The position numbers were made by a program, and so were the translations under genes. A DNA stretch of 64,000 bases from an uncultured Actinomycetota bacterium (GTDB taxonomy: Bacteria; Actinomycetota; Geothermincolia; Geothermincolales; RBG-13-55-18). The stretch covers positions 4,468-68,467 of the forward strand of contig CAZGWK010000013.1 of NCBI GenBank assembly GCA_964529285.1, read 5' to 3'. Shown here piece after piece: positions 15,416 through 31,912 of the stretch (position 1 is its first letter; each line of letters opens with the position of its first letter). The notes below the pieces were generated by a model. That model saw only the letters and a program-made list of their open reading frames with translations, was not told the DNA's origin and did not search any database.

Positions 15416-15492
<77 letters not shown>

Positions 15493-15502
15493 GCGCATAC
15501 CA

Positions 15503-15533
15503 GGCCGGAGGGTAATCCCTCCGGCCTGTTCGT
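15503..15533. terminator. Bidirectional intrinsic terminator: 10-bp perfect stem, TAAT loop.
   Basis: GGCCGGAGGG-taat-CCCTCCGGCC followed by TGTTCGT. It sits 10 nt after the tRNA and 49 nt beyond the stop of the convergent MCP gene. Confidence 0.6.
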
Positions 15534-15581
15534 AGGACCTGTTTACCTTTGTGGCGCAAATACAATGCCCGGCTCCGGTCG

Positions 15582-16892: not shown

Positions 16893-17037
16893 TCTGTCGC
16901 GCCCCTCGATTCGAAGGAATTATTCACTAATATCGGCATAGCATGCCGCAACTTGAAGCGGCAGTTCTCGGAAAAGAGCGGCGTTTGTGGTTGAATATAA
17001 ACGTGGTATTTCGGCTGCTGCGAAGGGAGGTCATACC

Positions 17038-17259
17038 ATGTCCTGTTATTTCCGGCACATGGCCGATGTCTTCGCGGAGGCTGGATTAGACCTGGATGAG
17101 GTCAAGGCGGATAAGGCGAAGAAGAAGGAAATCGACGAGAAGATCCACGCGCTGGTGGGAGTGGAGTACAAAGACTGCTCTCCGACGTGGAAAAGGGTGA
17201 AGGAGATGCTGGCCGACGACGAGGGCCGCGCTAAGCTGGTCAGGGCACTGAGATCCTGA
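17038..17259 (+). CDS. Small hypothetical protein (73 aa), Lys/Glu-rich.
   Basis: The ATG at 17038 lies 7 nt after a strong GAAGGGAGG Shine-Dalgarno. The ORF-track GTG at 16987 has none. I recognise no family. The lysine/acidic-rich helix-like sequence is MSCYFRHMADVFAEAGLDLDEVKADKAKKKEIDEKIH... Confidence 0.45.
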   Translation: MSCYFRHMADVFAEAGLDLDEVKADKAKKKEIDEKIHALVGVEYKDCSPTWKRVKEMLADDEGRAKLVRALRS

Positions 17260-17286
17260 GCGGGAGGAGCGATCGGAGGAGGGGGC

Positions 17287-18078: not shown

Positions 18079-18130
18079 TGCAGCCTGACCATTCCCAAGC
18101 ATGTTCGAGCCTTCGGGTGGGTATCTGCTT

Positions 18131-18157
18131 ATAGAGAGGATATCTATAGAGGATATC
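18131..18157 (+). promoter_or_regulatory. Direct repeat of (A)TAGAGGATATC, two copies 13 nt apart, each containing a GATATC palindrome, ~75 nt upstream of pfkA.
   Basis: atagAGAGGATATC / tatAGAGGATATC at 18135-18144 and 18148-18157. Confidence 0.3.
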
Positions 18158-18231
18158 GAGACGCCGCAACGCATCGCGAAGGTATATAGTACGATAATAG
18201 GAGAGCGACGGGAAAAGAAAGGTGGGACAGC

Positions 18232-19257
18232 ATGAGGGTGGCCTTGCTTACCGGCGGCGGAGACTCCTCCGCCATCAACGCCGCCATCCGCGCCGTGGTC
18301 TGCAAGGCCCTCTCCGAGGGTTTTGAGATCATCGGCATCAAGCGGGGATGGAGGGGGCTGGTGTACGATGAAGTAGAGCCGCTGTTTCGCGGTTCCGTAT
18401 CCGGCATCATACAGAGGGGCGGCACCATCCTCGGCACCTCCCGCCACAATCCTTTCAAGACGGAGAGCGGGCTGGAGAACATCATGTCCAACCTACGCAA
18501 GCACGGCATAGATGCGATCATAGCCATGGGTGGGGACGACACCAACGGCGTCGCTCACCGCCTGGCGGACTACGGCGTTAAATGCGTCGGCGTGCCCCAG
18601 ACCATAGACAACGACCTGCGGGGGACGGATTACTCCATAGGCTTTGATACGGCGGTAGCGGTCGCGACCGACGCCTTGGACAAGCTGCACACCACGGCGT
18701 TCTCGCACCACCGCATCATGGTCCTGGAGGTGATGGGAAGGGACGCGGGATGGATAGCGCTTATCTCCGGCATAGCTGGGGGAGCGGACGTCATCCTCAT
18801 ACCGGAAGTGCCCTTCACCCTGGAGGAGGTCATCGCGCGCATCGAGAAGCGCCACAAGGCCAACAAGCACTTCTCCATCATCGTGGTGTCGGAGGGCGCC
18901 AAGCCGGCGGGACAGGAGGAGCAGTTCGTGCAGGACCAGAAGAAGGACCCCTTCGGGCACGTGAGGCTGGGGGGCATCGGCAACTGGCTGGCCGACCGGA
19001 TCGAGGAAATGACCGCCTACGAGACGCGCGTTACCCACCTAGGCCACCTGCAGAGAGGCGGGGTGCCAACCGTTTTCGACCGCGTGCTGGCTACCCGCCT
19101 GGGGGCTTATGCGGTGGATATGATAAAGCAGGGTGATTTCGACCACATGGCCTGCATGAGCGCGGGCGAGGTGATCTCCGTCCCTTACGACGAGATCGTA
19201 GGGGAGGTCAAGCAGGTGGACCTCAGGATCTACGAGCTCTCCAAGCTGTTCTTGTGA
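18232..19257 (+). CDS. pfkA: 6-phosphofructokinase (ATP- or PPi-dependent PFK family).
   Basis: MRVALLTGGGDSSAINAAIRAVV, GGDDTNGVA, PQTIDNDL and MGRDAGWIAL are canonical PFK motifs. A Shine-Dalgarno GAAAGGTGGG precedes the ATG. Confidence 0.85.
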   Translation: MRVALLTGGGDSSAINAAIRAVVCKALSEGFEIIGIKRGWRGLVYDEVEPLFRGSVSGIIQRGGTILGTSRHNPFKTESGLENIMSNLRKHGIDAIIAMGGDDTNGVAHRLADYGVKCVGVPQTIDNDLRGTDYSIGFDTAVAVATDALDKLHTTAFSHHRIMVLEVMGRDAGWIALISGIAGGADVILIPEVPFTLEEVIARIEKRHKANKHFSIIVVSEGAKPAGQEEQFVQDQKKDPFGHVRLGGIGNWLADRIEEMTAYETRVTHLGHLQRGGVPTVFDRVLATRLGAYAVDMIKQGDFDHMACMSAGEVISVPYDEIVGEVKQVDLRIYELSKLFL

Positions 19258-19300
19258 AGTAATAATCCGCCTTTCATAACTCGTGATTCAGCATTGAGGC

Positions 19301-19329
19301 TTGACATAGATAATGCATAATGATAATAT
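19301..19329 (+). promoter_or_regulatory. Sigma-70-type promoter with consensus -35 TTGACA, a 17-nt spacer and -10 TAATAT, in an AT-rich island upstream of the TetR-led operon.
   Basis: TTGACA (19301-19306), a 17-nt spacer, then TAATAT (19324-19329). The surrounding ~110 nt are far more AT-rich than the rest of the window. Confidence 0.55.
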
Positions 19330-19359
19330 GTAAGCCATTAATCACAATATATGATTATG
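19316..19359. promoter_or_regulatory. Inverted repeat CATAATgAT ... ATcATTATG (9-bp arms) overlapping the -10 and transcription start. Candidate TetR operator.
   Basis: Arms at 19316-19324 and 19351-19359 with 8 of 9 complementary positions. It lies between the promoter and the TetR start codon at 19379. Confidence 0.35.
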
Positions 19360-19378
19360 TATTTACTCTGGGGAAGAT

Positions 19379-19990
19379 ATGAGCATCGTCGATAAAGCGA
19401 AAGAGAGATACGAACAGTACGAGCAGCAGCGTAAAAGGATAATACAGGCCGCAATAAAGGTCTTCGGAGAGACGAACTACGATGTTGGTACCATGGCCAT
19501 GGTCGCAGAGGAGGCGGGCATCTCCGAAGCCATGCTCTACAAACATTTCGACGGCAAGAAAGAGCTCTTCGTAACCTGTTTTCATGAGATAGTCGATGAA
19601 CTGATGTCGCTATACAGGGAATGCTACGCAAGAAACAGGGATGACCCACTGGGATACCTGGAAGACAGTGGCGTGGCGTACCTCAACTACATAAAGTCCT
19701 CCGCCGGTGGCTCCAAGTATTTCTCCCATCTCCTGAGCAGCACCTATGATCCCGAGCTTAAGAAGCCCTTGGTGGATTATTTCAAGGCCAGCGTGGGTAC
19801 GGTAAAGAAAGCGCTGGATCGCGCAAAGGAAGCCGGCGATCTGGGCAAGGACGTGGACACCGAGCTCCTGGCTTGGGATTACGTGGGACAGTATTATGGC
19901 CTCATCCTGGCCAGGGAAATGGATATCAAACCCATGCTCGACGAGAGCAGGATACGCGCCTTCATGAGGGCGATGTTCGGCAGAAAATAA
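19379..19990 (+). CDS. TetR/AcrR-family transcriptional regulator.
   Basis: An N-terminal HTH (TNYDVGTMAMVAEEAGISEAMLYKHF) and a ~200-aa all-helical length. Confidence 0.8.
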   Translation: MSIVDKAKERYEQYEQQRKRIIQAAIKVFGETNYDVGTMAMVAEEAGISEAMLYKHFDGKKELFVTCFHEIVDELMSLYRECYARNRDDPLGYLEDSGVAYLNYIKSSAGGSKYFSHLLSSTYDPELKKPLVDYFKASVGTVKKALDRAKEAGDLGKDVDTELLAWDYVGQYYGLILAREMDIKPMLDESRIRAFMRAMFGRK

Positions 19991-20123
19991 CTTGTAACCT
20001 GAACAGGGGTGATAGAAACCAGCGGCGGCTAAGAGCAGTTTTCTTACGCTCTTGTATAATCCATCGCTCACAGTTCGTGATTTTTCACTTATATAGAGTA
20101 TGCGTAACGAGAGGAGGAGAAAG

Positions 20124-21047
20124 ATGATCATCGACTGCCACGTACATATCTGGATTCCGGGGATGGTCCCCCTGGCCTACGAGGAAGGTTGTATCCGCAC
20201 CATGGTCATGGCGGCGGGTAGGGCCCTGGGGCAGAAGTTCACCTACGAACAGGGCAAGGAGATGCTCTACCCCATGCTCCAGGACGAGAAGGGCGAGAAA
20301 TATCTTGCCCACATGGACGAGGCGGGCATCGACAAGGCGGTGCTCTTCGGGGTGGACTTTGGGGAGGAGATGGGCGAGCCGGAGATCCCCATCTTCGAGA
20401 TGAACAGGATGTACGCGGAACTTTGCAAGGCCCACCCCGACCGCTTCGTCGCCCTCTGCGCCATCGATCCGCGCCGCAAGGGCGCAATGGATCACATAGT
20501 GCAGTGCATCGAGGAATGGGGCATGAAGGGGATCAAGCTCCACCCCTCCGCCGGCTTTAACCCCATGGACCCGGTGATGTATCCCGTTTACGAGAAATGC
20601 GCGGAGTGGGACCTGCCCCTGCTCCTCCATTCCGGGGCGCAGCCGGCGGCTCCGGTGGTGCTGGAGACGGCCCGCCCCGTGTGGATCGCGGAGGCGGCGA
20701 GCAGGTTCCCGGACACCAAGTTCATCGCCGCCCACTTCGGCATGGACTGGTGGCCCGAGGCCATCATGTTCGGCAGGCTGCTGCCCAACCTTTACTTCGA
20801 CTGCTCCTACTGGCAGCTCCTCTTCGGTCTGCACGCAGAGGAGTACTACTCACTGCTGCGCCGCTTTATCGACGATTGCGGCGCGGAGAAAGTGATGTGG
20901 GGCACGGATACCCCGCTTCCCAACGTGCTCGTGCCGCCCAAGGAATGGCTGGATATCCACACCAACCCCAGGACGGATATCGCCTTCACCCCCGAAGAGA
21001 TAAAGACCATCACCGAGGCAAACGCAGCGGAGCTCTTCAAGCTCTAG
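20124..21047 (+). CDS. Amidohydrolase_2 family metal-dependent hydrolase/decarboxylase (ACMSD / LigW / LigI-like TIM barrel).
   Basis: The N-terminus MIIDCHVHIW carries the HxH metal motif and follows a GAGGAGGAG Shine-Dalgarno. Later His/Asp ligands are present (LHPS, AAHFGMDWWPE). The ORF-track start at 20100 is less likely. Confidence 0.75.
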   Translation: MIIDCHVHIWIPGMVPLAYEEGCIRTMVMAAGRALGQKFTYEQGKEMLYPMLQDEKGEKYLAHMDEAGIDKAVLFGVDFGEEMGEPEIPIFEMNRMYAELCKAHPDRFVALCAIDPRRKGAMDHIVQCIEEWGMKGIKLHPSAGFNPMDPVMYPVYEKCAEWDLPLLLHSGAQPAAPVVLETARPVWIAEAASRFPDTKFIAAHFGMDWWPEAIMFGRLLPNLYFDCSYWQLLFGLHAEEYYSLLRRFIDDCGAEKVMWGTDTPLPNVLVPPKEWLDIHTNPRTDIAFTPEEIKTITEANAAELFKL

Positions 21048-21070
21048 GCAGGAGAAAGCGAGGCGCCAGT

Positions 21071-21538
21071 ATGGTTAACGAGGCAATCGTTGGAATGGAG
21101 TTCCCGCCCTTCGAGTTCATTATCGAGAAGGGTAAGATCAAGGAGTTCGCCAGGGCCCTGGGAGACAGGAACCCGGTCTACAGCGACGAGGAACTGGCCA
21201 GGAGCATGGGCTTCCGCTCCATCCCGGCGCCGCCGACCTACACCGCCTCTTTTCTGCATCATGTTCCCGACGAGAACTTCCTCCTCAACATGATGCAGGA
21301 GATGGGCATCTCCGTAGCCACCAGCGTGCACGGGGAATCGGAGTTCGAGTATCTCGCGCCTATATGCGCCGGGGACGTGCTGACCGTAAGGGTAAAGGTA
21401 AAGGACTACTATCAAAAGGAGGGCAAGCGCGGAGGGAAGATGAACTTCATCACCGTCGAATCCACTTATACCAACCAGGATGGCATGCTGGCGCAGAAGG
21501 ACCGCATGCTCTTCATCGAGCGCGAGTCGGCGGCGTGA
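21071..21538 (+). CDS. MaoC-like (R)-specific enoyl-CoA hydratase, hotdog-fold subunit 1.
   Basis: A ~155-aa hotdog-fold protein with the N-terminal-type motif FEFIIEKGKIKEFARALGDRNPVYSDEE. The ORF track merged it into an overlapping frame. The real ATG is at 21071. Confidence 0.75.
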   Translation: MVNEAIVGMEFPPFEFIIEKGKIKEFARALGDRNPVYSDEELARSMGFRSIPAPPTYTASFLHHVPDENFLLNMMQEMGISVATSVHGESEFEYLAPICAGDVLTVRVKVKDYYQKEGKRGGKMNFITVESTYTNQDGMLAQKDRMLFIERESAA

Positions 21539-21544
21539 GGGGGG

Positions 21545-21982
21545 ATGGCCATGCCTGTAGAGAAGCTTTTCTTCGAGGACGTGTCCGAGAGCGACGTGTC
21601 CCCGGAGCTCTCCCTCGAGGTCACCCGCACCCACATCGTCAAGTACGCAGGCGCGGGCGGCGATTTCAACCCCATCCATACCGACGAGACCTTCGCCACC
21701 GCCATAGGACTTCCCTCCGTCTTCGCCATGGGCCTGATGCAGGGAGGATACCTGGCACGCATGCTCACGGACTGGGTGGGCGCAGGAAACCTCCGGCTGT
21801 ACAAGATCCGCTTCACGGGGCAGGTGTGGCCGGGCGAGACCATCACCTGCAGGGGGAAGGTGGCGCGCAAGTATGAGCAGGCCGGCGAGAAGCTCGTCGA
21901 GTGTGAGCTCTCCGTCACCAACCAGTCGGGAGAGAGCAAGATCGAGGGCACGGCAGTGGCAGCCTTGCCGTCAAAGGAGTGA
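21545..21982 (+). CDS. MaoC-like dehydratase, hotdog-fold subunit 2 with catalytic motif.
   Basis: AGAGGDFNPIHTDETFA is the MaoC dehydratase active-site region. It is paired with the upstream hotdog gene in a HadAB/PhaJ-like two-subunit arrangement. Confidence 0.75.
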   Translation: MAMPVEKLFFEDVSESDVSPELSLEVTRTHIVKYAGAGGDFNPIHTDETFATAIGLPSVFAMGLMQGGYLARMLTDWVGAGNLRLYKIRFTGQVWPGETITCRGKVARKYEQAGEKLVECELSVTNQSGESKIEGTAVAALPSKE

Positions 21983-21985
21983 GCA

Positions 21986-23131
21986 ATGGATTTCGGTTTC
22001 TCGGACGAACAGAAGGCCTTCGCGAGATCGGTGCAGGAGTTCGCGGAGAAGGAGATAGCCCCCGGGGCGCGGGAGAGGGAGCAGACGGAGGAGTTCCCCC
22101 ACGATATATGGAAGAAGATGGCCGATTTCGGGCTGTTGGGCCTCCCGGTCCCCGAGGAGTACGGCGGCGGCGGTGCGGACGCGGTGACCACCACCCTGGC
22201 CAACGAGGTCTTCGCCCGCTACTGTCGGGACTTCGACCTCATGATCGAGTGGGGCTCGCACACCATGATCTGCGCCATGCCCATCGCCGTGCTGGGAAAC
22301 GAGGGGCAGAAGCGAAGGTACCTGCCGGACTTGTGCGAGGGCACCCGCATCGGCGCCTTCGCTCTCACCGAACCGGAGGCGGGCTCGGATGCCAGCGCCA
22401 TGAAGAGCAAGGCGGTGAGGGATGGTGATTCCTACGTCCTCAGCGGCAACAAGATATACATCTCCAACGCCCCCCACGCCGACACCTTCGTCACCTTCGC
22501 CAAGACGGCCGGTGAGGATGGAGGCGAGGGCATCTCCAGCTTCATCGTGGAGAGTTCATCCCCTGGTTTCGTGCGGGGCAAGCCCCTGAACCTGTATACA
22601 CCCTCGCTGGGCTCCGACGTGGGTGAGATAGCCTTCGACGACTGCCGCGTGCCGGCGGATAACCTCCTCGGGGTGGAGGGTCAGGGGTTCTACGCCATGC
22701 TCACCTCCCTGGGGTGGGAGAGGCTTGCCTTCGCCGGTTTCCTGGGCGCCATGGCCTGCAACCTCGAGGACTGCATCGCCTACGCCAAGGAACGGCAGGC
22801 CTTCGGCAAGCCCATCTCCAAGTTCCAGCTCATCCAGGCCAAGCTGGCGGACATGGCGGTGGACCTGGAAGCAGCACGCTTGCTCACTTACAAGCTGGCC
22901 TGGATGTTCGACACCGGACAGGTCATCCACCTGCAGGCGGCCATAGCCAAGCTCTTCACCACCGAGGCCGCGCTGCGCAACGCGCTGGAGGCCATCCAGG
23001 TCTTCGGGGGGTACGGCTGCATGACCGACGAGAACGTCGGTCGTACCCTGTGGCCAGCCAAGGCCTCGGTGATAGGCGGGGGGACCTCGGAGATACAGCG
23101 CATCTTCATCGCCAGGATGCTGCTGCGTTAG
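21986..23131 (+). CDS. Acyl-CoA dehydrogenase.
   Basis: MDFGFSDEQKAFARSVQEFAEKE at the N-terminus, ~380 aa, a conserved central beta-domain, and a C-terminal catalytic Glu region (IFGGYGCMTDENVGRTLWPAKASVIGGGTSEIQ). Confidence 0.85.
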   Translation: MDFGFSDEQKAFARSVQEFAEKEIAPGAREREQTEEFPHDIWKKMADFGLLGLPVPEEYGGGGADAVTTTLANEVFARYCRDFDLMIEWGSHTMICAMPIAVLGNEGQKRRYLPDLCEGTRIGAFALTEPEAGSDASAMKSKAVRDGDSYVLSGNKIYISNAPHADTFVTFAKTAGEDGGEGISSFIVESSSPGFVRGKPLNLYTPSLGSDVGEIAFDDCRVPADNLLGVEGQGFYAMLTSLGWERLAFAGFLGAMACNLEDCIAYAKERQAFGKPISKFQLIQAKLADMAVDLEAARLLTYKLAWMFDTGQVIHLQAAIAKLFTTEAALRNALEAIQVFGGYGCMTDENVGRTLWPAKASVIGGGTSEIQRIFIARMLLR

Positions 23132-23215
23132 AGGCGGATTAATACGGTGTATGAATCGAAGGATATCGCCGCGAAGGGATACTTCCGCGTGATAAGGGAG
23201 GGGTGAGACTAAAAA

Positions 23216-24763
23216 ATGGATATGTGGAGCATCATGAAGAGGGGCTTCATGTACAGACCCGACAGGGACTGTGCCATCTGCGCTGAGAAGCGGGTTACCT
23301 ACCGGGAGTTCGAGAAGCGCATCAACCGCCTGGCGAACGTGCTTTACGGCTTGGGACTGCAGAAGGGCGACCGGGTATCGGTTCTGGCCGAGAATTCCAT
23401 GATGGCCAAGGAAGCCATGATCGGCATCGAAAAATGCGGCCTTGTCTGGGCGCCGCTCAACTTCCGGCACGTTCCGGCGGAGCACGTTTACCATCTAAAC
23501 AACGCCGGATCCAGGGCCGTTATCATGCAGCAGCAGTTCGCCGAGGGCATCGCCTCGGTGCGGGACGAGCTGGAGACGGTGGAGCACTTCATCGTGGACG
23601 GAGAGCGCTGCGGTGGCATGGAGTCCTACGAGGAGCTCATGGCCAGGGCCAGCGCCAAGCATACCGCGGTCGATATTGACGAGGAAGACCCGGTGGCGCT
23701 CATGTACACCTCCGGCACCACCGGCAAGCCCAAGGGGGTGCTGCACACCCACAAGAGCTTCGGCGCCCTGGCCACCTTCGCGGCCATCGAGCTGGGAATA
23801 CAGGACAGCGACGTGGTCATCTACGTGGCCCCCATCAACCACGGCGCGGGCATACTGCTCCCGCCCCACCTCATGATGGGGGTGCCCAACATCCTCATAG
23901 CCCACCTGGACGTGGACTACATCCTGGACGTCATCCAGAAGGAAGGGGTTACCACTATGTGGCTGGCTCCCACCATCATCTACTTCCTCCTGGCTTATCC
24001 CAATCGGGCCAATTTCGACCTCTCCTCGCTGAGGTCGCTTCCCTATTCATCGGCCCCCATAGCGGTGGAGAGACTGAAGGAGGCGCTCGATGTCTTCGGG
24101 CCCGTCTTCGCCCAGGCCTACGGGCTGGTGGAGTGCCCCGTGATCAGCATGTTGTCCAGGGACGACCACGTGATCGGGGGCAGCGAGGAACAGACCAGGA
24201 GATTGGGGTCGGCGGGAAGGGAGATCATCTACACCCGGGTGCGCGTGGTCGACGACGACGGCAACGAGCTGCCCCCCGGTGAGACGGGGGAGATCATCGT
24301 GAACAGCCCCCTGGTGATGAAGGAGTACTGGCGGGATCCCGAGGCAACGGCGCAGGCGCTCAGGGAGGGGTGGCTGTACACGGGGGACGTGGGCTACCTG
24401 GACGACGACGGCTACCTCTTCATCGCCGACCGCCTCAAGGACATGATTATCACCGGGGGATACAACGTATACCCCAAGGAGGTGGAGAACGCCATCTTCA
24501 AGCACGCGGCGGTTCTCGAGGCAGCGGTTATCGGCGTCCCAGACGAGACCTGGGGGGAGTCGGTGAAGGCCTTCGTGGTGCCCAAGCCGGGCATGCAGGC
24601 CACTGAGGAGGAGATAATCGCCCTGTGCAGGGACAACCTCGCTTCGTATAAGAAGCCCAAATCGGTGGAGTTAGTCGATGCCCTGCCCAAGAACATGGCG
24701 GGCAAGATCCTCAAGACGGAGCTGCGCGCCCCCTACTGGGAGGGCAGGGAGCGCCAGGTTTGA
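23216..24763 (+). CDS. AMP-dependent acyl-CoA synthetase/ligase.
   Basis: The AMP-binding motif I LMYTSGTTGKPKGV, a YGLVE motif, and motif III GEIIVNSP...YW...GWLYTGDVGYLDDDGYLFIADRLKDMII. Confidence 0.85.
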   Translation: MDMWSIMKRGFMYRPDRDCAICAEKRVTYREFEKRINRLANVLYGLGLQKGDRVSVLAENSMMAKEAMIGIEKCGLVWAPLNFRHVPAEHVYHLNNAGSRAVIMQQQFAEGIASVRDELETVEHFIVDGERCGGMESYEELMARASAKHTAVDIDEEDPVALMYTSGTTGKPKGVLHTHKSFGALATFAAIELGIQDSDVVIYVAPINHGAGILLPPHLMMGVPNILIAHLDVDYILDVIQKEGVTTMWLAPTIIYFLLAYPNRANFDLSSLRSLPYSSAPIAVERLKEALDVFGPVFAQAYGLVECPVISMLSRDDHVIGGSEEQTRRLGSAGREIIYTRVRVVDDDGNELPPGETGEIIVNSPLVMKEYWRDPEATAQALREGWLYTGDVGYLDDDGYLFIADRLKDMIITGGYNVYPKEVENAIFKHAAVLEAAVIGVPDETWGESVKAFVVPKPGMQATEEEIIALCRDNLASYKKPKSVELVDALPKNMAGKILKTELRAPYWEGRERQV

Positions 24764-24805
24764 CGGACCCGAGTCAATGGGATGGAGAGAAAGGGGAATG
24801 CCGTA

Positions 24806-26095
24806 ATGTCCAAATACGACGCTTTGTTCGAGCCCATTACCCTCAAGAACGTGGAGCTCAAGAACCGCATTGCCATGGCGCCGATGAACGTCTGTTTCAC
24901 CGGCCCCAATCACATGGTCAGTAAACAGCAGACCGCATACTACGCCGCACGCGCCATGGGTGGGGCGGGGTTGATCATCATCGAGGCGGTGGGGGGCACC
25001 GACCACGAAACGGTCAAGACCTACGAGGCGCACAACAACCTCATGCTGGTCTACCCCTACCAGGCGGCTGACCATTCGGAACTGGTGGAGACTATCCATA
25101 CCCACGGAGCGAAGGTGATGTGCCAGATCGCCCCGGGAGCCGGCCGCCAGGGGAGCTCGGAATATTCCGGCGTCCAGCCCGTAGCCCCCTCTCCCATTCC
25201 CTGGGCACCCCAGGAGGAGATGATGCCCAAGGGCGTGAAGATGGAGGACATGGCGAAGATGATGGGGCTGTTGGGGGGATCGTCGACCCTGGTGCCCGAG
25301 ACGCCCCGCGAGCTGAGGAAGGACGAGATAGCGGTGCTCGCGGAGGACATGGGCAAGTCGTCCCGCCTGGCCAGGATCGCCGGCTACGACGGGGTGGAGC
25401 TGCATGCCCCCCACGGCTACCTGCTGCACGAGTTCCTCTCGCCCCGCTCCAACAAGCGAGATGACGAATACGGGGGTTCCCTGGAGAACCGGGCCCGTTT
25501 CATGTGTGAGTGTATAAAGAACATGCGCCAGGCAGTGGGCGATGAATACCTGGTAACGGTGAGGATCAGTGCCGATGAGCACCAGGAGGACGGCTTCCAC
25601 GTTGAGGAAACCATCGAGTTTGCCAAACTGGCCATCCAGGCGGGGGCGGACGGCCTCCACCTCTCCGACGGTTCCTACGAGTCCATGCGCTATTTCCTCC
25701 CCGATACCGACGGGCAGGTGGTTGAAGAGTCCGGGATCATAAAGGCCGGCATAAGAGAGGGATTGGGCGATGACTATCCGGTCATATGCCCCTCGGTGCA
25801 CGATCCCGACCTGGCGGCCGAGAGCGTTGCCTCGGGCAAGGCGGACATCATCTCCCAGGGACGGGCCCTCATCGCCGACCCCGAGTGGCCCAACAAGGTC
25901 AGAGAGGGGAAGGTTGAAGATATTGTGAGGTGCACCCGCTGCAACAAGGGGTGCATCCAGCGCTTCGTCCTGGGCCTCCCATCCCGCTGCGTGCTCAATC
26001 CCGAGATGGGACAGGAACAGTACATAGAGAAGTACAACACCAGGCAGCTGCTGCCCTTGCAGGAGAGGGTCTGGAAGATACCCAAAGAGATCTGA
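24806..26095 (+). CDS. NADH:flavin oxidoreductase, Old Yellow Enzyme family (ene-reductase / 2,4-dienoyl-CoA reductase-like FMN domain).
   Basis: LKNRIAMAPMNVCFTG at the N-terminus, the HGAKVMCQI and ELHAPHGYLLHEFLSPRSNKRDDEYGGSLENRARF OYE signatures, and the TIM-barrel FMN-binding pattern. The start at 24806 (MSKYDALF) versus 24782 is uncertain. Confidence 0.75.
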   Translation: MSKYDALFEPITLKNVELKNRIAMAPMNVCFTGPNHMVSKQQTAYYAARAMGGAGLIIIEAVGGTDHETVKTYEAHNNLMLVYPYQAADHSELVETIHTHGAKVMCQIAPGAGRQGSSEYSGVQPVAPSPIPWAPQEEMMPKGVKMEDMAKMMGLLGGSSTLVPETPRELRKDEIAVLAEDMGKSSRLARIAGYDGVELHAPHGYLLHEFLSPRSNKRDDEYGGSLENRARFMCECIKNMRQAVGDEYLVTVRISADEHQEDGFHVEETIEFAKLAIQAGADGLHLSDGSYESMRYFLPDTDGQVVEESGIIKAGIREGLGDDYPVICPSVHDPDLAAESVASGKADIISQGRALIADPEWPNKVREGKVEDIVRCTRCNKGCIQRFVLGLPSRCVLNPEMGQEQYIEKYNTRQLLPLQERVWKIPKEI

Positions 26096-26221
26096 AAGTC
26101 GACTGCCAATGCATGTTAAGAAGACGAGACGATATGCGCGCCGGATATGCAGGAGAGGGTAATGATCGGACTGCTGGCGGCGACGGCAGGCAGTCTGGCA
26201 CGCTGAAGGAGGGCTGAAAGT

Positions 26222-27406
26222 ATGGATAGTATTAGAGGCAAAACGGCCATCGTGGGCATAGGCGAGATACCCACCGGCATCTACCCGGAGAGGTCTTTCA
26301 TCGAACAGGCGGTAGCGGTCGGCGAGATGGCCATACGGGACGCGGGTATCGACAAGGAGGAGATCGACACCGTGATCCCCATCATCGCCGTGGCCAACCC
26401 CATAGACAACGCCAACCTGGTCTGTTCCTGGCTGGTGGAGGAGATGGGGATGGGAAAGACCTGCAAGGCAAATTTCGTCTGTGCCTCCGGCGGGTCGAGT
26501 TCCTCCAACTCCCTCAAGACCGCCATGGGGATGATCGTCTCCGGGCTGTCCGAGGCGGTGCTGGTGGTGCACACCGACAAGCTGGGGACGGGCCTGGACA
26601 TGGGAGCGGCCATCGCCCAGTTCGCGGTGGTCTCCATGAGCCAGGAGTACGAGATCCCTTACGGTTTCAGCCAGCTCGCCCTGGCGGGGTTCCTGCAGCA
26701 GCGCTACATGTACGACACCGGCACCACGGAGAGGCAGATAGCAAGCGTAGTAGAGACCCTGCGCAAGTGGGCGGCGCTCAATCCCAATGCCATGCTGCGC
26801 GAGTTGAGGACCGCCGACGATGTGCTGGCCTCCAAGATGATCTCCGCCCCGGTGAGGAAAAGGATGATGAACAAGCTGGCCGACGGCGCCTCTGCCTTCA
26901 TCGTCACCAGCGCGGAGAGGGCCCGGCAACTCAGCGACCGGCCGGCCTACATCCTGGGGGTGGGCTCCCGCTGTACCAACTTCACCGCCACCGAGGGACA
27001 GGGTGATTTCTACCAGACCTGGACTCCGGCGGCGGATGATGCCTTCGCCATGGCGGGCATCGGACGCGAGGACATCGACGTGGCGGAACTCTACGATGCC
27101 TTTCCCACCTTCATCCTCATCTCCATGGAACTTGTCGGGTTGTGCAAGAGAGGCACGGCGGGGGTTTTCTTCGAGGAAGGCAGCGCCGCGCCGGGAGGAA
27201 AACTCCCGGTGACCACCAACGGCGGCATGATGGCCCAGGGCCACACCGGCGCCGGTGGCGGCGTGGCGGTGCTGGTCGAGGCGGCCCGCCAGGTTATGGG
27301 CAAGGCGGGGGAGCGGCAGGTGCCGGACGTGAAATATGCCCTGGATACGGCCTCAGGAGGCATCGGTATGGACTTCCACGTCGGCATACTGGGAAGCGAG
27401 GTGTGA
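26222..27406 (+). CDS. Thiolase-like protein of the SCP-x / lipid-transfer (Ltp) type, the kind that partners with DUF35 proteins.
   Basis: The thiolase nucleophile region NFVCASGGSS, a C-terminal GGMMAQGHTGAGGGV loop, and no classic biosynthetic thiolase signature. A DUF35 gene follows immediately. Confidence 0.8.
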   Translation: MDSIRGKTAIVGIGEIPTGIYPERSFIEQAVAVGEMAIRDAGIDKEEIDTVIPIIAVANPIDNANLVCSWLVEEMGMGKTCKANFVCASGGSSSSNSLKTAMGMIVSGLSEAVLVVHTDKLGTGLDMGAAIAQFAVVSMSQEYEIPYGFSQLALAGFLQQRYMYDTGTTERQIASVVETLRKWAALNPNAMLRELRTADDVLASKMISAPVRKRMMNKLADGASAFIVTSAERARQLSDRPAYILGVGSRCTNFTATEGQGDFYQTWTPAADDAFAMAGIGREDIDVAELYDAFPTFILISMELVGLCKRGTAGVFFEEGSAAPGGKLPVTTNGGMMAQGHTGAGGGVAVLVEAARQVMGKAGERQVPDVKYALDTASGGIGMDFHVGILGSEV

Positions 27407-27409
27407 GAG

Positions 27410-27823
27410 ATGAACGAATATAACCTGCCGCTGCCGCTGATAACCACCCTGAGCAAGGTCTTCTGGGACGGGTGCAGGGAGAACAAGCTTCTCTACCAGC
27501 ACTGCAGGGACTGCGGGAGGGTCATCTTCTTCCCCAAACACCTCTGCCCGGACTGCATGGGCCACGACCTTGAATGGCTGGAGTCCAAGGGAAAAGGAGT
27601 GATCGACACCTTCACCGTGACCTACGAGGGCGCGCCGCCCGCCTTCATGGGGGTGACCCCCTACTGCGTGGCCGTCATCCGCATGGACGAGGGCTACCGC
27701 ATGATGAGCAACATCATCGACTGCGACTTTGAGGAACTCGAGTGCGAGATGCCCGTAGAGGTAATCTTCCAGCCGGTGACGGAGGAGATCACCCTCCCTA
27801 AGTTCCGGCCCGCAAAGTGCTAA
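27410..27823 (+). CDS. DUF35 OB-fold / zinc-ribbon protein (thiolase partner subunit).
   Basis: A CxxC...CxxC rubredoxin-like ribbon (HCRDCGRVIFFPKHLCPDCMG) followed by an OB-fold. It starts 4 nt after the thiolase stop. Confidence 0.8.
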   Translation: MNEYNLPLPLITTLSKVFWDGCRENKLLYQHCRDCGRVIFFPKHLCPDCMGHDLEWLESKGKGVIDTFTVTYEGAPPAFMGVTPYCVAVIRMDEGYRMMSNIIDCDFEELECEMPVEVIFQPVTEEITLPKFRPAKC

Positions 27824-27856
27824 TGGTCTACGTTGCGATAGAAAGGGGAATTCATA

Positions 27857-28513
27857 GTGCATGAGGGAGATACGAGCAAGCTGTTTTTGCTGACCCAAGC
27901 CGTTGCCGCCTTGGAGGAGGACGACCTCAATGATCTCCTTGAAGGTCTTATCTCCGTTGCAACACCTCCACTGGAGATAATCAACGCTCTCTCGAGGGGT
28001 ATGGAAAAAGTTGGAGCGATGTACGATGGAGGTATATATTTTCTTTCGGAACTGATCTTCTCGGGGGAGATATTCAAGGAGGCCATGGGCAGAATCAAGC
28101 CTCTCCTGGAAGATGAAGGGTGCGGGGAATCCATGGGTAAGGTGCTCATGGGAACGGTAAGAGGGGATATACACGACCTGGGCAAAAACATTGTAATAGT
28201 CCTTCTGGAGTGCGCGGGCTATGAGGTGATCGATCTCGGTGTGGACGTACCGCCCGAGGTTTTTGTTCAGGCCCTCAAAGACGATTCTATAACCCTGGTC
28301 GGGATGAGCTCATTGCTGACAACCGCTTTTGAGGCCATGGAGCAGACAGTCGAGGCTGTTTGTGAGGCGGGCTTGAGAGATGACGTAAGGATCATGATTG
28401 GTGGCGGGTCGACCAGCGACATGCTGAAGGAGAAGATCGGGGCCGACTTCTTCGGTAAGAACGCCACGGCGGCAGTTGAATTCGCAAACATGGTTTACGG
28501 GAAACAGCGGTGA
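27857..28513 (+). CDS. Cobalamin-binding corrinoid protein of a methyltransferase system (MtaC/MtbC-like).
   Basis: An N-terminal helical cap followed by the B12-binding Rossmann domain with the D-x-H-x-x-G motif (GDIHDLGKNIV) and a GG(G/S)xS region (IGGGSTS). It starts at a GTG with GAAAGGGGA 7 nt upstream. Confidence 0.8.
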   Translation: MHEGDTSKLFLLTQAVAALEEDDLNDLLEGLISVATPPLEIINALSRGMEKVGAMYDGGIYFLSELIFSGEIFKEAMGRIKPLLEDEGCGESMGKVLMGTVRGDIHDLGKNIVIVLLECAGYEVIDLGVDVPPEVFVQALKDDSITLVGMSSLLTTAFEAMEQTVEAVCEAGLRDDVRIMIGGGSTSDMLKEKIGADFFGKNATAAVEFANMVYGKQR

Positions 28514-28524
28514 AGGTGGCACCC

Positions 28525-29853
28525 ATGTCCGATCGCGAGCAACCATCGCATGGTCCGGGTGTATTCGAAGCGTTCTATACCCGCAAGTGGGAGGTCTTCG
28601 AGGCGGGGTTCTTGAAGGATAAGCGGATAGATTTACTCGCTGCCAGGCTGTTTCGTCATGCTACTCGCTTCAGGAGATTCAAAGATCCATTGGTCGAGGA
28701 TTCCTTTAAAAGGAAACTCGAACGGTGCTATACAGCCATCGCTATCGGTATTCCTGACCGCGTGCCTCTTATCAGCAGCGGGATAAATTTCTACCCCGCG
28801 TATTACTCGGGCTTATCCTTCGCCGACTACGTTAACGACAGAAAAAAGAACCTGGCGGCATTCTTCAGATTCTCGCGCGAGATGTGTGGTTTTGATGCCA
28901 TGTTCCCATCGCAGATCGCATGCATGGGCCCGCTGATTCAAGCCACCAAACTGGATGTGCTCAAGCTGCCCGGCATCGATCTGCCGGACAACGTTGGCTA
29001 CCAGTACGTTGAGAGGGAAAGGCTGAGGCCGGAGGAGTACAGGCAGTTTCTCGACGAGAAATGGGATTTCTTCAGGAAAACGATCCTTCCTCGCATGAGC
29101 CCTCTTCATCGCGGTGGAAGGGGCTGGGAGACCGGAACGCTTCTCAAGGCGGCCTTCGCGGCAACAGCGTATGCGCATTCCTTCAACCACGCAATAGATA
29201 TCATAGAGAAGAACTACGGAATACCCATACTCCCAGGCGCCTTTTCGTTCGCCCCCTACGATCTCGTATCTTTTCTCTTCAGAGGTTTGGAGGGTATATC
29301 CGGTGACCTGTTCCGGCGTGCCGAGGACCTGGAGGGTACCGTGGATATGATGGTCCAGGTCATAACTATGGCCTGTGAGAACATCGCCGTGCTTTCGGGG
29401 ATAAACAGCGCCGTTATCCTTTGCGAACGTGCCTTTTCTTTGTCCCCCCGCCAGTTCAAGCGTTTCTACATGCCGTATTTGAAGAAACTCGTGCATAACC
29501 TGATTGACCGGGGCATAATACCGCTGCTTGCTCTTGAGCAGGATTGCAGCCATCTTATCGAGTTCATACTGGAGTTGCCACCCCGGAAATGCATTGTAAA
29601 TCTGGATACCTCGGATATCTTCAAGGCAAAGAAGATACTGGAGGGACATACGTGCATAGCGGGCAACGTTCCCATGAACCTCATGGTCACCGGGACGCCG
29701 CAAGACATCAGGGACTACTGTGCCAGGCTTATACAGGAACTGGCGCCCGGAGGGGGGTTCATGATGAGCGGTGCTTTAGGTATTCCCGACAACGCCAGGG
29801 AGGAAAACGTGCGGGCCATGATCGAATATACGCTGGAGCAAGGAAAATACTAG
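28525..29853 (+). CDS. Uroporphyrinogen decarboxylase (URO-D) family methyltransferase (MtaA/MtbA-like corrinoid methyltransferase).
   Basis: A ~440-aa URO-D/MtaA-type TIM barrel adjacent to the corrinoid protein. The ATG at 28525 has GAAGGTGG 4 nt upstream. The ORF-track GTG at 28510 overlaps the upstream stop. Confidence 0.7.
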   Translation: MSDREQPSHGPGVFEAFYTRKWEVFEAGFLKDKRIDLLAARLFRHATRFRRFKDPLVEDSFKRKLERCYTAIAIGIPDRVPLISSGINFYPAYYSGLSFADYVNDRKKNLAAFFRFSREMCGFDAMFPSQIACMGPLIQATKLDVLKLPGIDLPDNVGYQYVERERLRPEEYRQFLDEKWDFFRKTILPRMSPLHRGGRGWETGTLLKAAFAATAYAHSFNHAIDIIEKNYGIPILPGAFSFAPYDLVSFLFRGLEGISGDLFRRAEDLEGTVDMMVQVITMACENIAVLSGINSAVILCERAFSLSPRQFKRFYMPYLKKLVHNLIDRGIIPLLALEQDCSHLIEFILELPPRKCIVNLDTSDIFKAKKILEGHTCIAGNVPMNLMVTGTPQDIRDYCARLIQELAPGGGFMMSGALGIPDNAREENVRAMIEYTLEQGKY

Positions 29854-29889
29854 AGAGATCGCGATTCAGAACCGCCAATATCGAGCCAT

Positions 29890-30948
29890 ATGGATTGCGG
29901 CCTTCTCACGGGCATCCCAGGTTGCAGGGAGGCAGAAGACTTGAAATCGAGCGTTCACAAGCTGAAGGTCAAAGAGCTTAAAAAGGGGCGCCGTGCCAAC
30001 CCCCTGTTTTTCCCCGTTACCTTTTCCATGTTCGGTTTGTTTAATGCGGCACGTATGATCACGAAGATCCTTGGGCGCATCTACGATGGTTACGGACCCA
30101 CAGATACGAGTCCGGAGAGCCAGGAATATTTCATCAACTATCTCGATTTTGTTGGCTGGAAACCTTTCCTGCAGGAGGTGAAGGATCTGGCTCCCATCAG
30201 CCCTTATTTCCTTGCAAACGAAGCCGTGGTCTTTGGCGCCTTACGAAGGATGATCAAGTCCCAATGCATGAAAGAAGCCAGGACAGAAGCGCAGTCGGAT
30301 CTGTGGCAGGAAATGGAGGAGAATGCGAGAAAACTGGGTGTGGATATGGTTGGTTATTCTCTATTGAACAGGGACTATATCTTCCAGGGTATGCATGTCT
30401 TCTACCCGAATCTTGTCGTGCTGGGCATGGAGATGAGATGGCAGGGCATGTTGGATGCGCCGGGTATTGGAGCGGGCAAAGAGACCATGAGGACCTACCA
30501 TAGACTGGGCGCAGCCACCAACAAGCTGGCCGATTTTTTTATGGACCGCGGCTACCGCGCCCAGCCGATGCCACCTTATTCCGCCTACGTCCTCTGGCCG
30601 GCCATAGCAAAAGAAGCCGGCCTGGCGGAACGGGGCCTTCACGGGCTGATGATAACCCCCCGATTCGGCCCGTTACAACGCTGGTCTGCGGTAGCGGTCG
30701 AGGCCGCGCCTCTGCCCGAGACGGATGCCGTGCGGCTGGACTGGCTAGAGGGATTCTGCGCATCCTGCAGGCAATGCATCCAGGCGTGTCCTGCGCAGGC
30801 GATAATGAGCGAGCCGGTTCGCGGCCGGGGTGAGCTGGTAAGGTATATAGATAACGAGAGATGCTATCCTTATTTCGCCCGTTACAAGAGCTGCTCCATA
30901 TGCATCAAAGTATGTACGGCAAAGCTTAGGAAGGAAGGGCGAATCTGA
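29890..30948 (+). CDS. QueG/RdhA-superfamily protein (epoxyqueuosine reductase-like) with two [4Fe-4S] ferredoxin motifs.
   Basis: The central block AGLAERGLHGLMITPRFGPLQRWSAVAVEAAPLPETD matches the QueG core GLGWIGKNTLLI...FGSW. The C-terminus carries CASCRQCIQACP and C..CSICIKVCT cluster motifs. I see no strong Shine-Dalgarno at the annotated ATG. Confidence 0.65.
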   Translation: MDCGLLTGIPGCREAEDLKSSVHKLKVKELKKGRRANPLFFPVTFSMFGLFNAARMITKILGRIYDGYGPTDTSPESQEYFINYLDFVGWKPFLQEVKDLAPISPYFLANEAVVFGALRRMIKSQCMKEARTEAQSDLWQEMEENARKLGVDMVGYSLLNRDYIFQGMHVFYPNLVVLGMEMRWQGMLDAPGIGAGKETMRTYHRLGAATNKLADFFMDRGYRAQPMPPYSAYVLWPAIAKEAGLAERGLHGLMITPRFGPLQRWSAVAVEAAPLPETDAVRLDWLEGFCASCRQCIQACPAQAIMSEPVRGRGELVRYIDNERCYPYFARYKSCSICIKVCTAKLRKEGRI

Positions 30949-31147: not shown

Positions 31148-31912
31148 TCAAACAGGCGGAGTTATCTCGATGGGCTGGTTGATGCCGGTTATGTCTATGT
31201 CGATATATACGTCGACGCCTTCGTAGCCGGATCCCAGGGTCACTTTTCGGAAGACCATCTCGTATTTCAGCGGGTAATATGACGCCGCATCGATCCATAT
31301 ATCCACCTGGCCGCCCGTGCTCGCCTGCAGGCTGGATGGGGGGATATCGTCGAGAAGGCCGGAGAGGTTTTCGGGGCTCAATTCAAAGCGCAGGTGGACC
31401 GCCTGTACGCCCCGCAGATCCTCTACCCCGAGCTTCTGCGCCGAGATGGAAAGGGAGAGGTAATCGGAGATATGAGCCGTGTAGACGGTGGCGGTCTCCT
31501 CGTCCAGGGTGGCCTGCTGTTCCACCCAGCCGCCTCCGGCAAGGTCCTTTCCCCACTGTCTGTCGCCGACGCGCACGACCTCCTGGATAATCGTGCCCTC
31601 GCCGCTCTCCGGGTCGTAGTAGGTGTCGGTGAGGCTGATATCGTCACCGGCCGTATCGATTACCAGTTCCTCCGTCTTCACCCGGACCGCATCCGCGCCG
31701 GCGAAGGACATGGAAAGCACCATGTGATACGAATCTATCGTCTCGCCCGCTTCCTGCGCCTTGGCGACGATGGATTCGACCTCGGAGGGTGGCGTCCCGT
31801 TCCCACCGCATCCCGCAAGAATCACTACGGTCAACAGCGCAGGAAGGGCGAGAAGCAGAGGCCTTCTCGAGACAGCCGTTCTTCTGCGACTGTGCATCGA
31901 CACTCCAGTCAC
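31148..31912 (-). CDS. Putative lipoprotein (LolA/LppX-like fold possible).
   Basis: A signal peptide with lipobox LLTVVILAGC|GGNG, then a Gly/Thr-rich linker. I recognise no catalytic motif. Confidence 0.55.
   Translation of the reverse strand: MTGVSMHSRRRTAVSRRPLLLALPALLTVVILAGCGGNGTPPSEVESIVAKAQEAGETIDSYHMVLSMSFAGADAVRVKTEELVIDTAGDDISLTDTYYDPESGEGTIIQEVVRVGDRQWGKDLAGGGWVEQQATLDEETATVYTAHISDYLSLSISAQKLGVEDLRGVQAVHLRFELSPENLSGLLDDIPPSSLQASTGGQVDIWIDAASYYPLKYEMVFRKVTLGSGYEGVDVYIDIDITGINQPIEITPPV

Follow-up and report, generated by a model that had tools for sequence, protein, structure and literature searches.

The window studied here, a stretch of 64,000 nucleotides (nt) from contig CAZGWK010000013.1 of an uncultured Actinomycetota bacterium (Geothermincolia), carries twelve genes in which a TetR-family regulator is followed by enzymes of the beta-oxidation type and by a corrinoid (vitamin B12) module. 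Do these genes serve one catabolic pathway and, if so, for which substrate? An earlier note on this DNA had read them as a translationally coupled operon for the anaerobic catabolism of a methoxylated aryl-alkanoate. The reading that we came to favour, and to which we give an even chance, is a TetR-repressed catabolic operon made of two evolutionary layers, namely a conserved acyl-CoA core (genes 1-9) and an exchangeable B12 cassette (genes 10-12) acting on the same substrate. The enzyme families are known, their modular combination is undescribed, and a literature search found no prior account of the gene cluster in Geothermincolia or Actinomycetota.

When the open reading frames (ORFs) were listed, the twelve co-directional genes announced for the + strand between 19379 and 30948 were found, and profile searches (Pfam or NCBIfam) of all twelve products recovered every protein family that the earlier note had named. 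In order, the genes encode the regulator, an amidohydrolase_2 enzyme, the two subunits of a MaoC hotdog hydratase (MaoC-A and MaoC-B), an acyl-CoA dehydrogenase (ACAD), a CoA ligase, a flavoenzyme of the old yellow enzyme (OYE) family, a thiolase and its DUF35 partner, and then a corrinoid protein (CP), a methyltransferase (MT) of the UroD superfamily and an RdhA-type enzyme (Table 1).

In order to establish how far this arrangement is conserved, a genome collection was scanned with the thiolase and then searched by tblastn with all twelve proteins. Thiolase orthologues with 65-94% identity were present in 12 loci (designated by L numbers) of metagenome-assembled genomes (MAGs). Genes 1-9 occurred in the same order, with 63-95% amino acid identity, in seven Actinomycetota MAG loci (L013, L014, L015, L016, L022, L024 and L037), the closest cluster relatives being MAGs labelled Actinomycetota/Actinobacteria (Zodletone, SURF_21) and Geothermincolia. 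The core was rearranged in five Desulfobacterota-type loci (L017-L021), where the order is TetR, a different ligase (about 600 aa), MaoC-A, MaoC-B, ACAD, thiolase, DUF35, in some cases OYE, amidohydrolase_2 and one or two short-chain dehydrogenases/reductases (SDRs). A crotonase (enoyl-CoA hydratase, ECH) and a phosphofructokinase gene lie 5' of TetR (17287-19257, +); since the crotonase is conserved in this position at the nucleotide level in L013 and L014, it may belong functionally to the pathway.

The conservation of the core ends abruptly. Between the window and L013, 84-90% nucleotide identity extends over 17038-27810 and stops at most 13 nt from the stop codon of the DUF35 gene; nucleotide homology to L013, L014, L016, L022 and L024 ends at 27809-27813. 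Inside the cassette, a single 66%-identical stretch within the methyltransferase gene matched L013, and homology to this locus resumed only at 31155, in the convergent downstream gene (70% identity by blastn over 31155-31681). The GC content at third codon positions (GC3) was 0.80-0.88 for genes 2-9 versus 0.63-0.66 for genes 10-12 (corrinoid protein 0.63, methyltransferase 0.66), a compositional discontinuity. Furthermore, the slot after DUF35 is filled differently in the relatives. The corrinoid protein, methyltransferase and RdhA-type enzyme of the window are replaced by two Fer4 proteins (272 aa) and a methyltransferase 52% identical to that of the window in L013/L004; by a Fer4 protein (272 aa), a methyltransferase (443 aa) and an RdhA-like protein (337 aa, 55%) in JGI contig 3300042731; by an SDR and a methyltransferase (55% identical) in L037; by an SDR, an ACAD and a short UroD-family protein (378 aa) in L014; by an SDR and a short UroD-family protein in L022; and by an OLD-family nuclease (AAA_15 + TOPRIM; 9613-11499, -) in L024. 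The homology break, the drop in GC3 and the differing cargo thus mark genes 10-12, as judged from sequence, as a replaceable cassette that was no part of the ancestral operon. The twelve genes, first taken for one coherent unit, are therefore not one evolutionary unit, the last three having been swapped in.

Two side observations concern the slot itself. The nuclease of L024 suggests that the core's 3' end is a hotspot for insertions. In L014 (SURF_21 MAG), genes for an alpha-L-rhamnosidase, a class II aldolase and an L-rhamnose isomerase (15353-20049) directly follow the core-SDR-ACAD-short-UroD array, which may hint at the use of a plant glycoside (e.g. a flavonoid rhamnoside) or be a coincidence. 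The 272-aa Fer4 proteins of L004/L013 were considered as short RdhA-like proteins and rejected, the BLASTP similarity being confined to the ferredoxin motif; they are members of a CCCxCCC Fe-S family, of which the window encodes paralogues at 51468-54752.

Is the cassette nevertheless tied functionally to the core? Among the Actinomycetota loci that extend far enough, six out of seven carry a UroD-family gene in the slot, with mutual identities of 32-55%. About eight arrangements place a UroD-family methyltransferase-like gene or an RdhA-type gene next to genes of the core type. In L005/L039, OYE-thiolase-DUF35-ECH-ACAD is separated by 3 kb from a CP-MT pair, in L010 UroD and RdhA-like (56%) genes adjoin thiolase-DUF35-OYE, and in L044 an RdhA-like gene directly follows the MaoC-A/MaoC-B pair. 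Such repeated adjacency in differing arrangements points to a shared pathway rather than to chance neighbours, and the joining of beta-oxidation-type genes with a corrinoid methyltransferase module, on which the earlier note was built, is thereby seen to recur in other genomes. We consider a functional link between core and cassette substantially likelier than a mere hotspot.

The opposite explanation holds that the locus consists of two unrelated units, a self-sufficient core whose substrate bears neither methoxy group nor halogen and a mobile C1/dehalogenation module that settled in a hotspot, any co-transcription being incidental. This explanation, which we find unlikely, accounts well for the sharp homology and GC3 break at 27824, for a cargo that varies among close relatives and includes a defence nuclease, for methyltransferase homologues that elsewhere accompany FAD_binding_4/CCG genes or stand alone, and for Desulfobacterota cores that have neither a UroD nor an RdhA gene. 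It does not sit easily with the UroD-family genes that recur in the slot in spite of their low mutual identity, nor with the RdhA-type genes of L044 and L010; moreover, the CP-MT loci linked to FAD_binding_4 also have OYE-thiolase-DUF35 at most 3 kb away, and the junction contains no terminator or promoter match.

The start codons were inspected as well. The likely start of the amidohydrolase gene is 20124, with the Shine-Dalgarno (SD) sequence GGAGGAG, and that of MaoC-A is the ATG at 21071, which gives 155 aa as in the relatives; an overlapping start at 21044, proposed earlier, was ruled out, the codon there being CTA. The methyltransferase probably begins at the ATG at 28525 (SD AAGGTGG; the gene caller concurs), a GTG at 28510 being less likely, and the RdhA-type gene at the TTG at 29941 (SD GGGAGG, supported by the alignment of homologues). 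With these corrections the spacers measure, in gene order, 133, 23, 6, 3, 84, 18, 126, 3 (thiolase-DUF35), 33, 11 and 87 nt. The description of the spacers as 3-90 nt or overlapping had thus to be changed to 3-133 nt, two of them above 90 nt and none an overlap.

An internal terminator before 27857, named earlier as a sign of separate transcripts, was looked for by scanning and by folding, and none was found. In the region scanned (18.0-32.5 kb), none of the terminator-like sites was intergenic, and promoter-like and terminator-like matches were rarer than in shuffled sequence. No stable hairpin was detected in the 84-, 126- and 33-nt spacers or in the spacer after the operon, which folded no better than shuffles (z = 0.0-0.7). 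We infer that the twelve genes are co-transcribed. An independent Logan assembly of SRR7048218 (L001) contained the order OYE-thiolase-DUF35-CP-MT-RdhA at 100% identity, so that the junctions from OYE to RdhA are not the chimera of a single assembler. An antisense ORF of 857 aa (24671-27244, -) across the OYE and thiolase genes was rejected as a gene; its GC3 (0.59 versus 0.82-0.84 for the sense genes) marks it as a high-GC artefact.

To examine the control of the operon by phylogenetic footprinting, the regions upstream of TetR were aligned from seven orthologous Actinomycetota loci. The TTGACA-17-TAATAT promoter proposed earlier was found at its place, with 10 of 12 consensus matches in a consensus scan, and its CTTGAC and TGATA elements were invariant in all seven loci. 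Directly after TGATA, a palindrome GT[AG]AG-N7-T[CT]AC was likewise conserved in 7/7 loci. In the window this is TGTAAGCCATTAATCACA, which is enclosed by the inverted-repeat operator candidate that had been placed at 19316-19359. The TetR protein is 69-85% identical in L013, L014, L016, L022, L024 and L037, and TetR control at the proposed site is supported by this conserved candidate operator.

In the relatives, a second copy of the palindrome (GTAAGT-N-ACTTAC) was present in the TetR-amidohydrolase spacer. The second copy in the window is degraded, its right half alone surviving, beside a TATAAT at 20055-20060. Together, this TATAAT and the second palindrome of the relatives make a second regulated promoter likely in this spacer, and the simplest reading of the two sites would be TetR autoregulation plus a regulated promoter for the structural genes. 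Furthermore, a 27-nt direct repeat (74% identical) occurs in the two regulatory spacers, at 19262-19288 and 20056-20082, each copy ending in TCGTGATT.

For the assignment of the enzymes, NCBIfam equivalog and subfamily cut-offs were used together with sequence searches of the PDB. The CoA ligase was the sole protein above a curated cut-off (NF004837, subfamily-level, 524 bits versus 476). Its best solved relatives were two closely related chains, 8weu/8wev (fatty-acyl-CoA synthase / feruloyl-CoA synthetase, 7e-89), with FadD13 next, a kinship that is suggestive, not diagnostic. MaoC-A reached 64 bits against HadA (cut-off 180) and MaoC-B 70 bits against HadB (cut-off 203); the BbsA and BbsB models gave 38.8 bits (cut-off 250) and 111 bits (cut-off 750). 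The best NCBIfam matches of the ACAD, PigA and AcrC (about 332 bits), were also below the equivalog cut-offs. PDB matches of the thiolase included 4u4e, Ltp-type proteins and BbsB (7pxp), and those of the amidohydrolase were weak (3irs, an uncharacterised protein, 3e-12; LigW, 4e-9).

The OYE protein is of the type of FadH and of the type III aryl-CoA reductases (NCR). As in these enzymes, its FMN barrel is followed by a C-x2-C-x3-C-x11-C [4Fe-4S] motif, and its best PDB matches were 2,4-dienoyl-CoA reductase (1ps9) and 2-naphthoyl-CoA reductase (6qkg). Unlike them, it ends at 437 aa and has no C-terminal FAD/NAD(P)H module, so that its electrons would have to come from a separate redox donor. 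The anaerobic naphthalene (thn) pathway, which the NCR-like OYE had brought to mind as a model for the core, was set aside, given the OYE without FAD/NADH domains and the fact that no other thn-specific genes were seen.

The core resembles the ChsH1-ChsH2/Ltp2 system for steroid side chains and the BbsAB system for benzylsuccinate in having a two-subunit hotdog hydratase, an SCP-x/Ltp thiolase with DUF35, an acyl-CoA dehydrogenase and TetR control. It differs from them in its free-standing DUF35, in scores far under the equivalog cut-offs, in the addition of an Fe-S OYE and an amidohydrolase_2, and in having no hydroxyacyl-CoA dehydrogenase. The comparison with O-demethylase and BbsAB/Ltp2-ChsH clusters that the earlier note had called for yielded a shared architecture, with equivalog scores below cut-off and neither methyltransferase II nor activase.

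This likeness also raises the alternative of a non-aromatic bulky acid (isoprenoid, alicyclic, or the side chain of a steroid or bile acid); the protein of the UroD family would then not be a corrinoid methyltransferase in this pathway but, for example, a cofactor-independent decarboxylase. The MaoC heterodimer and the SCP-x thiolase/DUF35 pair are typical of steroid side-chain and benzylsuccinate pathways, the OYE resembles BaiCD as well as FadH and NCR, the ligase also scores on the steroid-24-oyl-CoA synthetase model (294 bits), and a neighbouring corrinoid protein is lacking for most of the UroD genes linked to the core. However, all equivalog scores for steroid and Bbs models fall far short of the cut-offs, a corrinoid protein does adjoin the methyltransferase in the window, L005, L008 and L042, and the UroD-family protein of the window is much closer to a corrinoid methyltransferase (CdmB, 5e-36) than to true UroD (1e-3). 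We regard this alternative as rather improbable.

A precedent on the aromatic side is offered by the Cou pathway of Rhodococcus jostii RHA1, in which CouO, an enzyme belonging to the amidohydrolase superfamily, catalyses the final step in the beta-oxidative deacetylation of p-hydroxycinnamates (PMC4737184). The likeness, which serves as a literature precedent only, consists of an actinobacterial host and a CoA ligase combined with side-chain beta-oxidation and an amidohydrolase-superfamily enzyme, to which the feruloyl-CoA synthetase among the ligase's best solved relatives can be added. In contrast to that pathway, the regulator of the window is of the TetR and not the MarR family and the host is anaerobic; the thiolase/DUF35 pair, the OYE and the B12 module, all present in the window, have no counterpart in the Cou pathway.

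Turning to the cassette, gene 10 shows the motifs of a corrinoid protein, with a B12-binding_2 cap and a Rossmann B12-binding domain carrying DxHxxG (DIHDLG), SxL (SSL) and GG (GGG); its score against TIGR02370 was 153.8 bits, below the cut-off. The match of gene 11 to CdmB of Acetobacterium dehalogenans (PDB 9rui) was obtained by phmmer over residues 59-442, about 28% of 295 aligned residues being identical. That gene 11 encodes a methyltransferase I acting on a corrinoid protein is well supported by these matches. CdmB serves as methyltransferase I in a corrinoid system specific for chloromethane; it is zinc-free and inactive on methoxy-aromatics, shares a clade with the O-demethylases MtoB, MtvB, OdmB and VdmB, and has homologues in Bacillota and Asgard archaea (PMC13222342). 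The homologues of gene 11 were found in uncultured Actinomycetota (49-58% identity) and in Asgard archaea (Sigynarchaeum, 37-41%).

Like CdmBCA of A. dehalogenans, MtoABCD, MtvABC and OdmABCD, the window has a methyltransferase I of the same clade, including its N-terminal extension, next to a small corrinoid protein that has the cap, the Rossmann domain and DxHxxG. Unlike in these systems, no methyltransferase II or ATP-dependent activase is nearby, the module ends an acyl-CoA operon and is paired with an RdhA-type enzyme, and the orthologues of the methyltransferase in relatives are often without a corrinoid protein.

A metagenome scan with the methyltransferase profile returned 7 loci, too few for co-occurrence statistics. 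Where FAD_binding_4-CCG-FAD_binding_4 heads the locus, the CP-MT pair is invariably followed by two neighbouring genes, for products of 263 and about 272 aa (Table 1); these products were rejected as RdhA-like proteins or methyltransferase II, having similarity to neither and no Pfam/NCBIfam match. Divergent FAD_binding_4/FAD-oxidase_C and CCG-domain genes (1931-4411, -) stand upstream of the Desulfobacteraceae core in L017, a gene pair of the type that also accompanies CP-MT in Actinomycetota.

Gene 12 was described in the earlier note as a QueG/RdhA-like Fe-S protein. It proved to be a reductive-dehalogenase-type enzyme and not QueG-like. The profile searches gave a match to the RDH model and a weak one to QueG; sequence searches matched PceA at 1.6e-15, NpRdhA at 9e-8 and QueG at 6e-3 only, and an AF2 model built on nine homologues (pLDDT 80.7, pTM 0.82) was ranked by Foldseek in the same order (PceA 7e-12, NpRdhA 7e-9, QueG 3e-5). 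As in PceA and NpRdhA/BhbA, the core fold is B12-binding and two [4Fe-4S] motifs are present (CxxCxxCxxxC and C...CxxCxxxC, with 8/8 Cys invariant across the aligned family). Tyr203 and Arg264 of gene 12 (352-aa numbering; positions counted by hand along the HMMER alignment) align with the catalytic Tyr246 and Arg305 of PceA, and these two residues are likewise invariant in the family alignment.

Like NpRdhA, the enzyme is predicted to be cytoplasmic, with no RR motif of a TAT signal at its N terminus. It differs from these dehalogenases (460-700 aa) in its length of only about 335 aa and in having neither a fused reductase domain nor an RdhB anchor gene, the next gene being convergent. Sequence and model place gene 12 in an uncharacterised compact RdhA subfamily. 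An exhaustive HMMER search collected 373 clusters of it at E<=1e-30, mostly of 300-350 aa, which overturned the impression of a tiny family (10 sequences) given by a word-indexed search. Members occur in Psychrilyobacter ("reductive dehalogenase domain-containing protein") and Promethearchaeota; their labels say at most "RDH domain-containing", and others are mis-annotated as epoxyqueuosine reductase (QueG).

A further alternative is an organohalide module, in which Co(I) attack would let the methyltransferase remove the carbon of a halomethyl or haloalkyl group, as CdmB does with chloromethane, the RdhA-type enzyme would remove aryl or vinyl halides, and the operon would degrade halogenated acids. 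In its favour, the closest solved relative CdmB acts on haloalkanes and not on methoxy-aromatics, the Asgard (Sigynarchaeum) homologues belong to the group flagged as Cdm-like (PMC13222342), and the neighbouring enzyme has an RdhA fold with the catalytic Tyr and Arg. On the other hand, the identity with CdmB is low and the clade that it shares with the O-demethylases does not allow specificity to be read from homology; gene 12 scored 68.6 bits against TIGR02486 (RDH), below the cut-off of 160.35, and its subfamily has no characterised member. We consider this alternative quite doubtful. Under the two-layer reading, the methoxylated aryl-alkanoate of the earlier note is a substrate that we infer, and a halogenated one is equally open.

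Following the two-layer reading, the ligase would activate a bulky carboxylic acid, possibly an aryl-alkanoate with methoxy and/or halogen substituents, to its CoA thioester. The acyl-CoA dehydrogenase, the R-specific heterodimeric MaoC hydratase and the SCP-x thiolase/DUF35 pair would then shorten or open the substrate in a beta-oxidation-like manner, the FMN/[4Fe-4S] enzyme of FadH/NCR type would reduce an enoyl- or dienoyl-CoA with electrons from ferredoxin, and the amidohydrolase_2 enzyme would hydrolyse, hydrate or decarboxylate an intermediate. The cassette, which entered the core at its 3' end by recombination, would be read from the same promoter(s). Its methyltransferase I would take the methyl group from a methoxy (or halomethyl/haloalkyl) substituent and pass it to Co(I) in the neighbouring corrinoid protein, and the RdhA-type enzyme would act on the same substrate family by reductive elimination, in the simplest case of a halide beside the phenol unmasked by demethylation. 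Genes outside this locus would have to supply the corrinoid activase and the methyl acceptor (methyltransferase II, tetrahydrofolate).

Several observations weigh against this scheme. In the core, the NCBIfam equivalog scores are all far below cut-off, so that a substrate can be assigned to none of the enzymes. The earlier scheme of side-chain shortening, for which the ligase, dehydrogenase, hydratase and thiolase families are indeed present, omitted the 3-hydroxyacyl-CoA dehydrogenase step, and Pfam/NCBIfam searches found no such enzyme among the twelve genes. A conserved SDR of this function follows the core in L014, L019, L022 and L037; the nearest SDR of the window (55564-56442) is 25 kb off and only 36% identical. 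The coupling of the genes had also been overstated, as no genes overlap and only three junctions are tight (3-6 nt).

In the cassette, what stands of the proposed corrinoid O-demethylation module is the methyltransferase I class and the corrinoid motifs. A canonical O-demethylase requires a methyltransferase II and a corrinoid activase. Among the genes of the 64-kb window, no Pfam family of methyltransferase II (pterin-binding/MtrH-type), no ATP-dependent activase (RACE/RamA type) and no tetrahydrofolate genes were found, and the annotated 10-kb flanks around seven homologues of the methyltransferase contained none of these either. To lie apart from the cluster is less usual for a methyltransferase II than for an activase. 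As the activase of A. dehalogenans is likewise unlinked (PMC13222342), its absence here is weak evidence. The nearest solved homologue is a chloromethane enzyme and not an O-demethylase. Among seven core-linked arrangements, that of the window alone includes a corrinoid protein (L013, L037 and JGI 3300042731 are without it), and it is missing from four or five others, so that a corrinoid requirement of the UroD proteins linked to the core is not assured.

As to the link itself, the slot also takes unrelated DNA and could be a plain insertion hotspot, methyltransferase homologues elsewhere accompany FAD_binding_4/CCG genes or acyl-CoA dehydrogenases or stand alone, and a UroD or RdhA gene occurs in none of the Desulfobacterota versions of the core (L017-L021).

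Table 1. Features of the operon and its flanks (window positions unless a locus is named)
Feature	Position	Strand	Remarks
Sigma-70-type promoter	19301..19329	+	-35 TTGACA 19301-06; -10 GATAAT 19322-27 or TAATAT 19324-29
Candidate TetR operator	19329..19346	.	Imperfect palindrome TGTAAG-N6-ATCACA, TGTAAGCCATTAATCACA, immediately 3' of -10
TetR-family regulator, 203 aa	19379..19990	+	PF00440 1.9e-13
TetR-amidohydrolase spacer, 133 nt	19991..20123	+	TATAAT, 27-nt repeat, degraded second operator copy
Amidohydrolase_2-family metal hydrolase/decarboxylase/hydratase-type enzyme, 307 aa	20124..21047	+	PF04909 4.7e-36; N-terminal HxH motif
MaoC/hotdog hydratase subunit A (HadA/ChsH-like), 155 aa	21071..21538	+	PF13452 1.5e-35 (FAS1_DH/MaoC)
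MaoC/hotdog hydratase subunit B (HadB-like), 145 aa	21545..21982	+	PF01575 1.5e-20
Acyl-CoA dehydrogenase, short/medium-chain (Bcd/AcrC-like) type, 381 aa	21986..23131	+	Three ACAD domains
Acyl/aryl-CoA ligase, 515 aa	23216..24763	+	PF00501 + PF13193
FadH/NCR-type OYE flavoenzyme, 437 aa	24782..26095	+	PF00724 (Oxidored_FMN) 3.5e-65; [4Fe-4S] motif
SCP-x/Ltp-type thiolase, 394 aa	26222..27406	+	PF22691 (Thiolase_C_1)
DUF35 thiolase partner, zinc ribbon + OB fold, 137 aa; last core gene	27410..27823	+	PF12172 (zf-ChsH2) + PF01796 (OB_ChsH2_C)
Left junction of replaceable cassette	27824..27856	+	No terminator; SD AAAGGGGA for corrinoid gene
Corrinoid protein, 218 aa	27857..28513	+	PF02607 + PF02310
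UroD-superfamily methyltransferase I, CdmB/MtoB/MtvB clade, 442 aa	28525..29853	+	PF01208
Compact cytoplasmic RdhA-type B12/2x[4Fe-4S] enzyme, 335 aa	29941..30948	+	TIGR02486 68.6 bits; ORF opens at 29890
Right conserved flank, lipoprotein-like gene	31148..31912	-	L013 homology resumes; weak SCO4651-family match
263/~272-aa gene pair	L005 9553-11156; L008 11354-12960; L039 6243-7843		No Pfam/NCBIfam match

Outside the operon, the window also encodes UPF0182, sortase, caspase-domain, chemotaxis and two-component proteins. Two paralogous Fe-S proteins (34% identical; 51468-52697 and 53697-54752, -), each with CCCxCCC and a 2x[4Fe-4S] domain, are distant kin (29%, E 1e-13) of the 272-aa Fer4 slot proteins of L013 and JGI 3300042731; near them lie a TetR gene (54780-55412) and the SDR gene at 55564-56442. 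The product of a FAD_binding_4 gene (44219-45865, -) shares 37% identity with the FAD_binding_4 partner in the CP-MT loci L005/L008, and beside it are genes for a CbbQ/NirQ-type AAA protein (42008-42856) and a VWA protein (39958-41976, -). At 60754-63765 (+), a second amidohydrolase_2 gene (27% identity with gene 2) precedes genes for a CoA-transferase A/B pair, and this stretch may be another small acyl-CoA catabolic unit.

A bolder idea, to which we give little credence, is that the methyltransferase and the compact RdhA-type enzyme form a two-enzyme "substituent-stripping" unit for CoA-activated aryl-alkanoates in subsurface Actinomycetota. O-demethylation would unmask a phenol, and the resulting ortho-halophenol would then be reductively dehalogenated; more radically, there would be no methyltransferase II at all, and the RdhA-type enzyme would reductively dispose of the corrinoid-bound methyl or alkyl group. 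If true, the large compact RdhA subfamily would thereby receive its first function, and no earlier catabolic operon would be known in which B12-dependent demethylation/dehalogenation is hard-wired to beta-oxidation.

Most credit for the anaerobic turnover of methoxylated and halogenated aromatics derived from lignin, coal and fungi in sediments and the deep subsurface goes to acetogens, organohalide respirers and a few archaea. In its nine-gene core, the locus has a catabolic operon, conserved and so far unstudied, that uncultured Actinomycetota and Desulfobacterota have in common. The differing cassettes found at one site (B12 methyltransferase, RdhA-type enzyme, Fe-S proteins, SDR) constitute a natural comparative experiment for the assignment of function, and the locus gives the compact RdhA-type subfamily a genomic context and candidate partners. 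If the link between core and cassette is functional, corrinoid-dependent demethylation/dehalogenation would reach the Actinomycetota, where it would be coupled to the degradation of carbon skeletons rather than to C1 energy metabolism alone.

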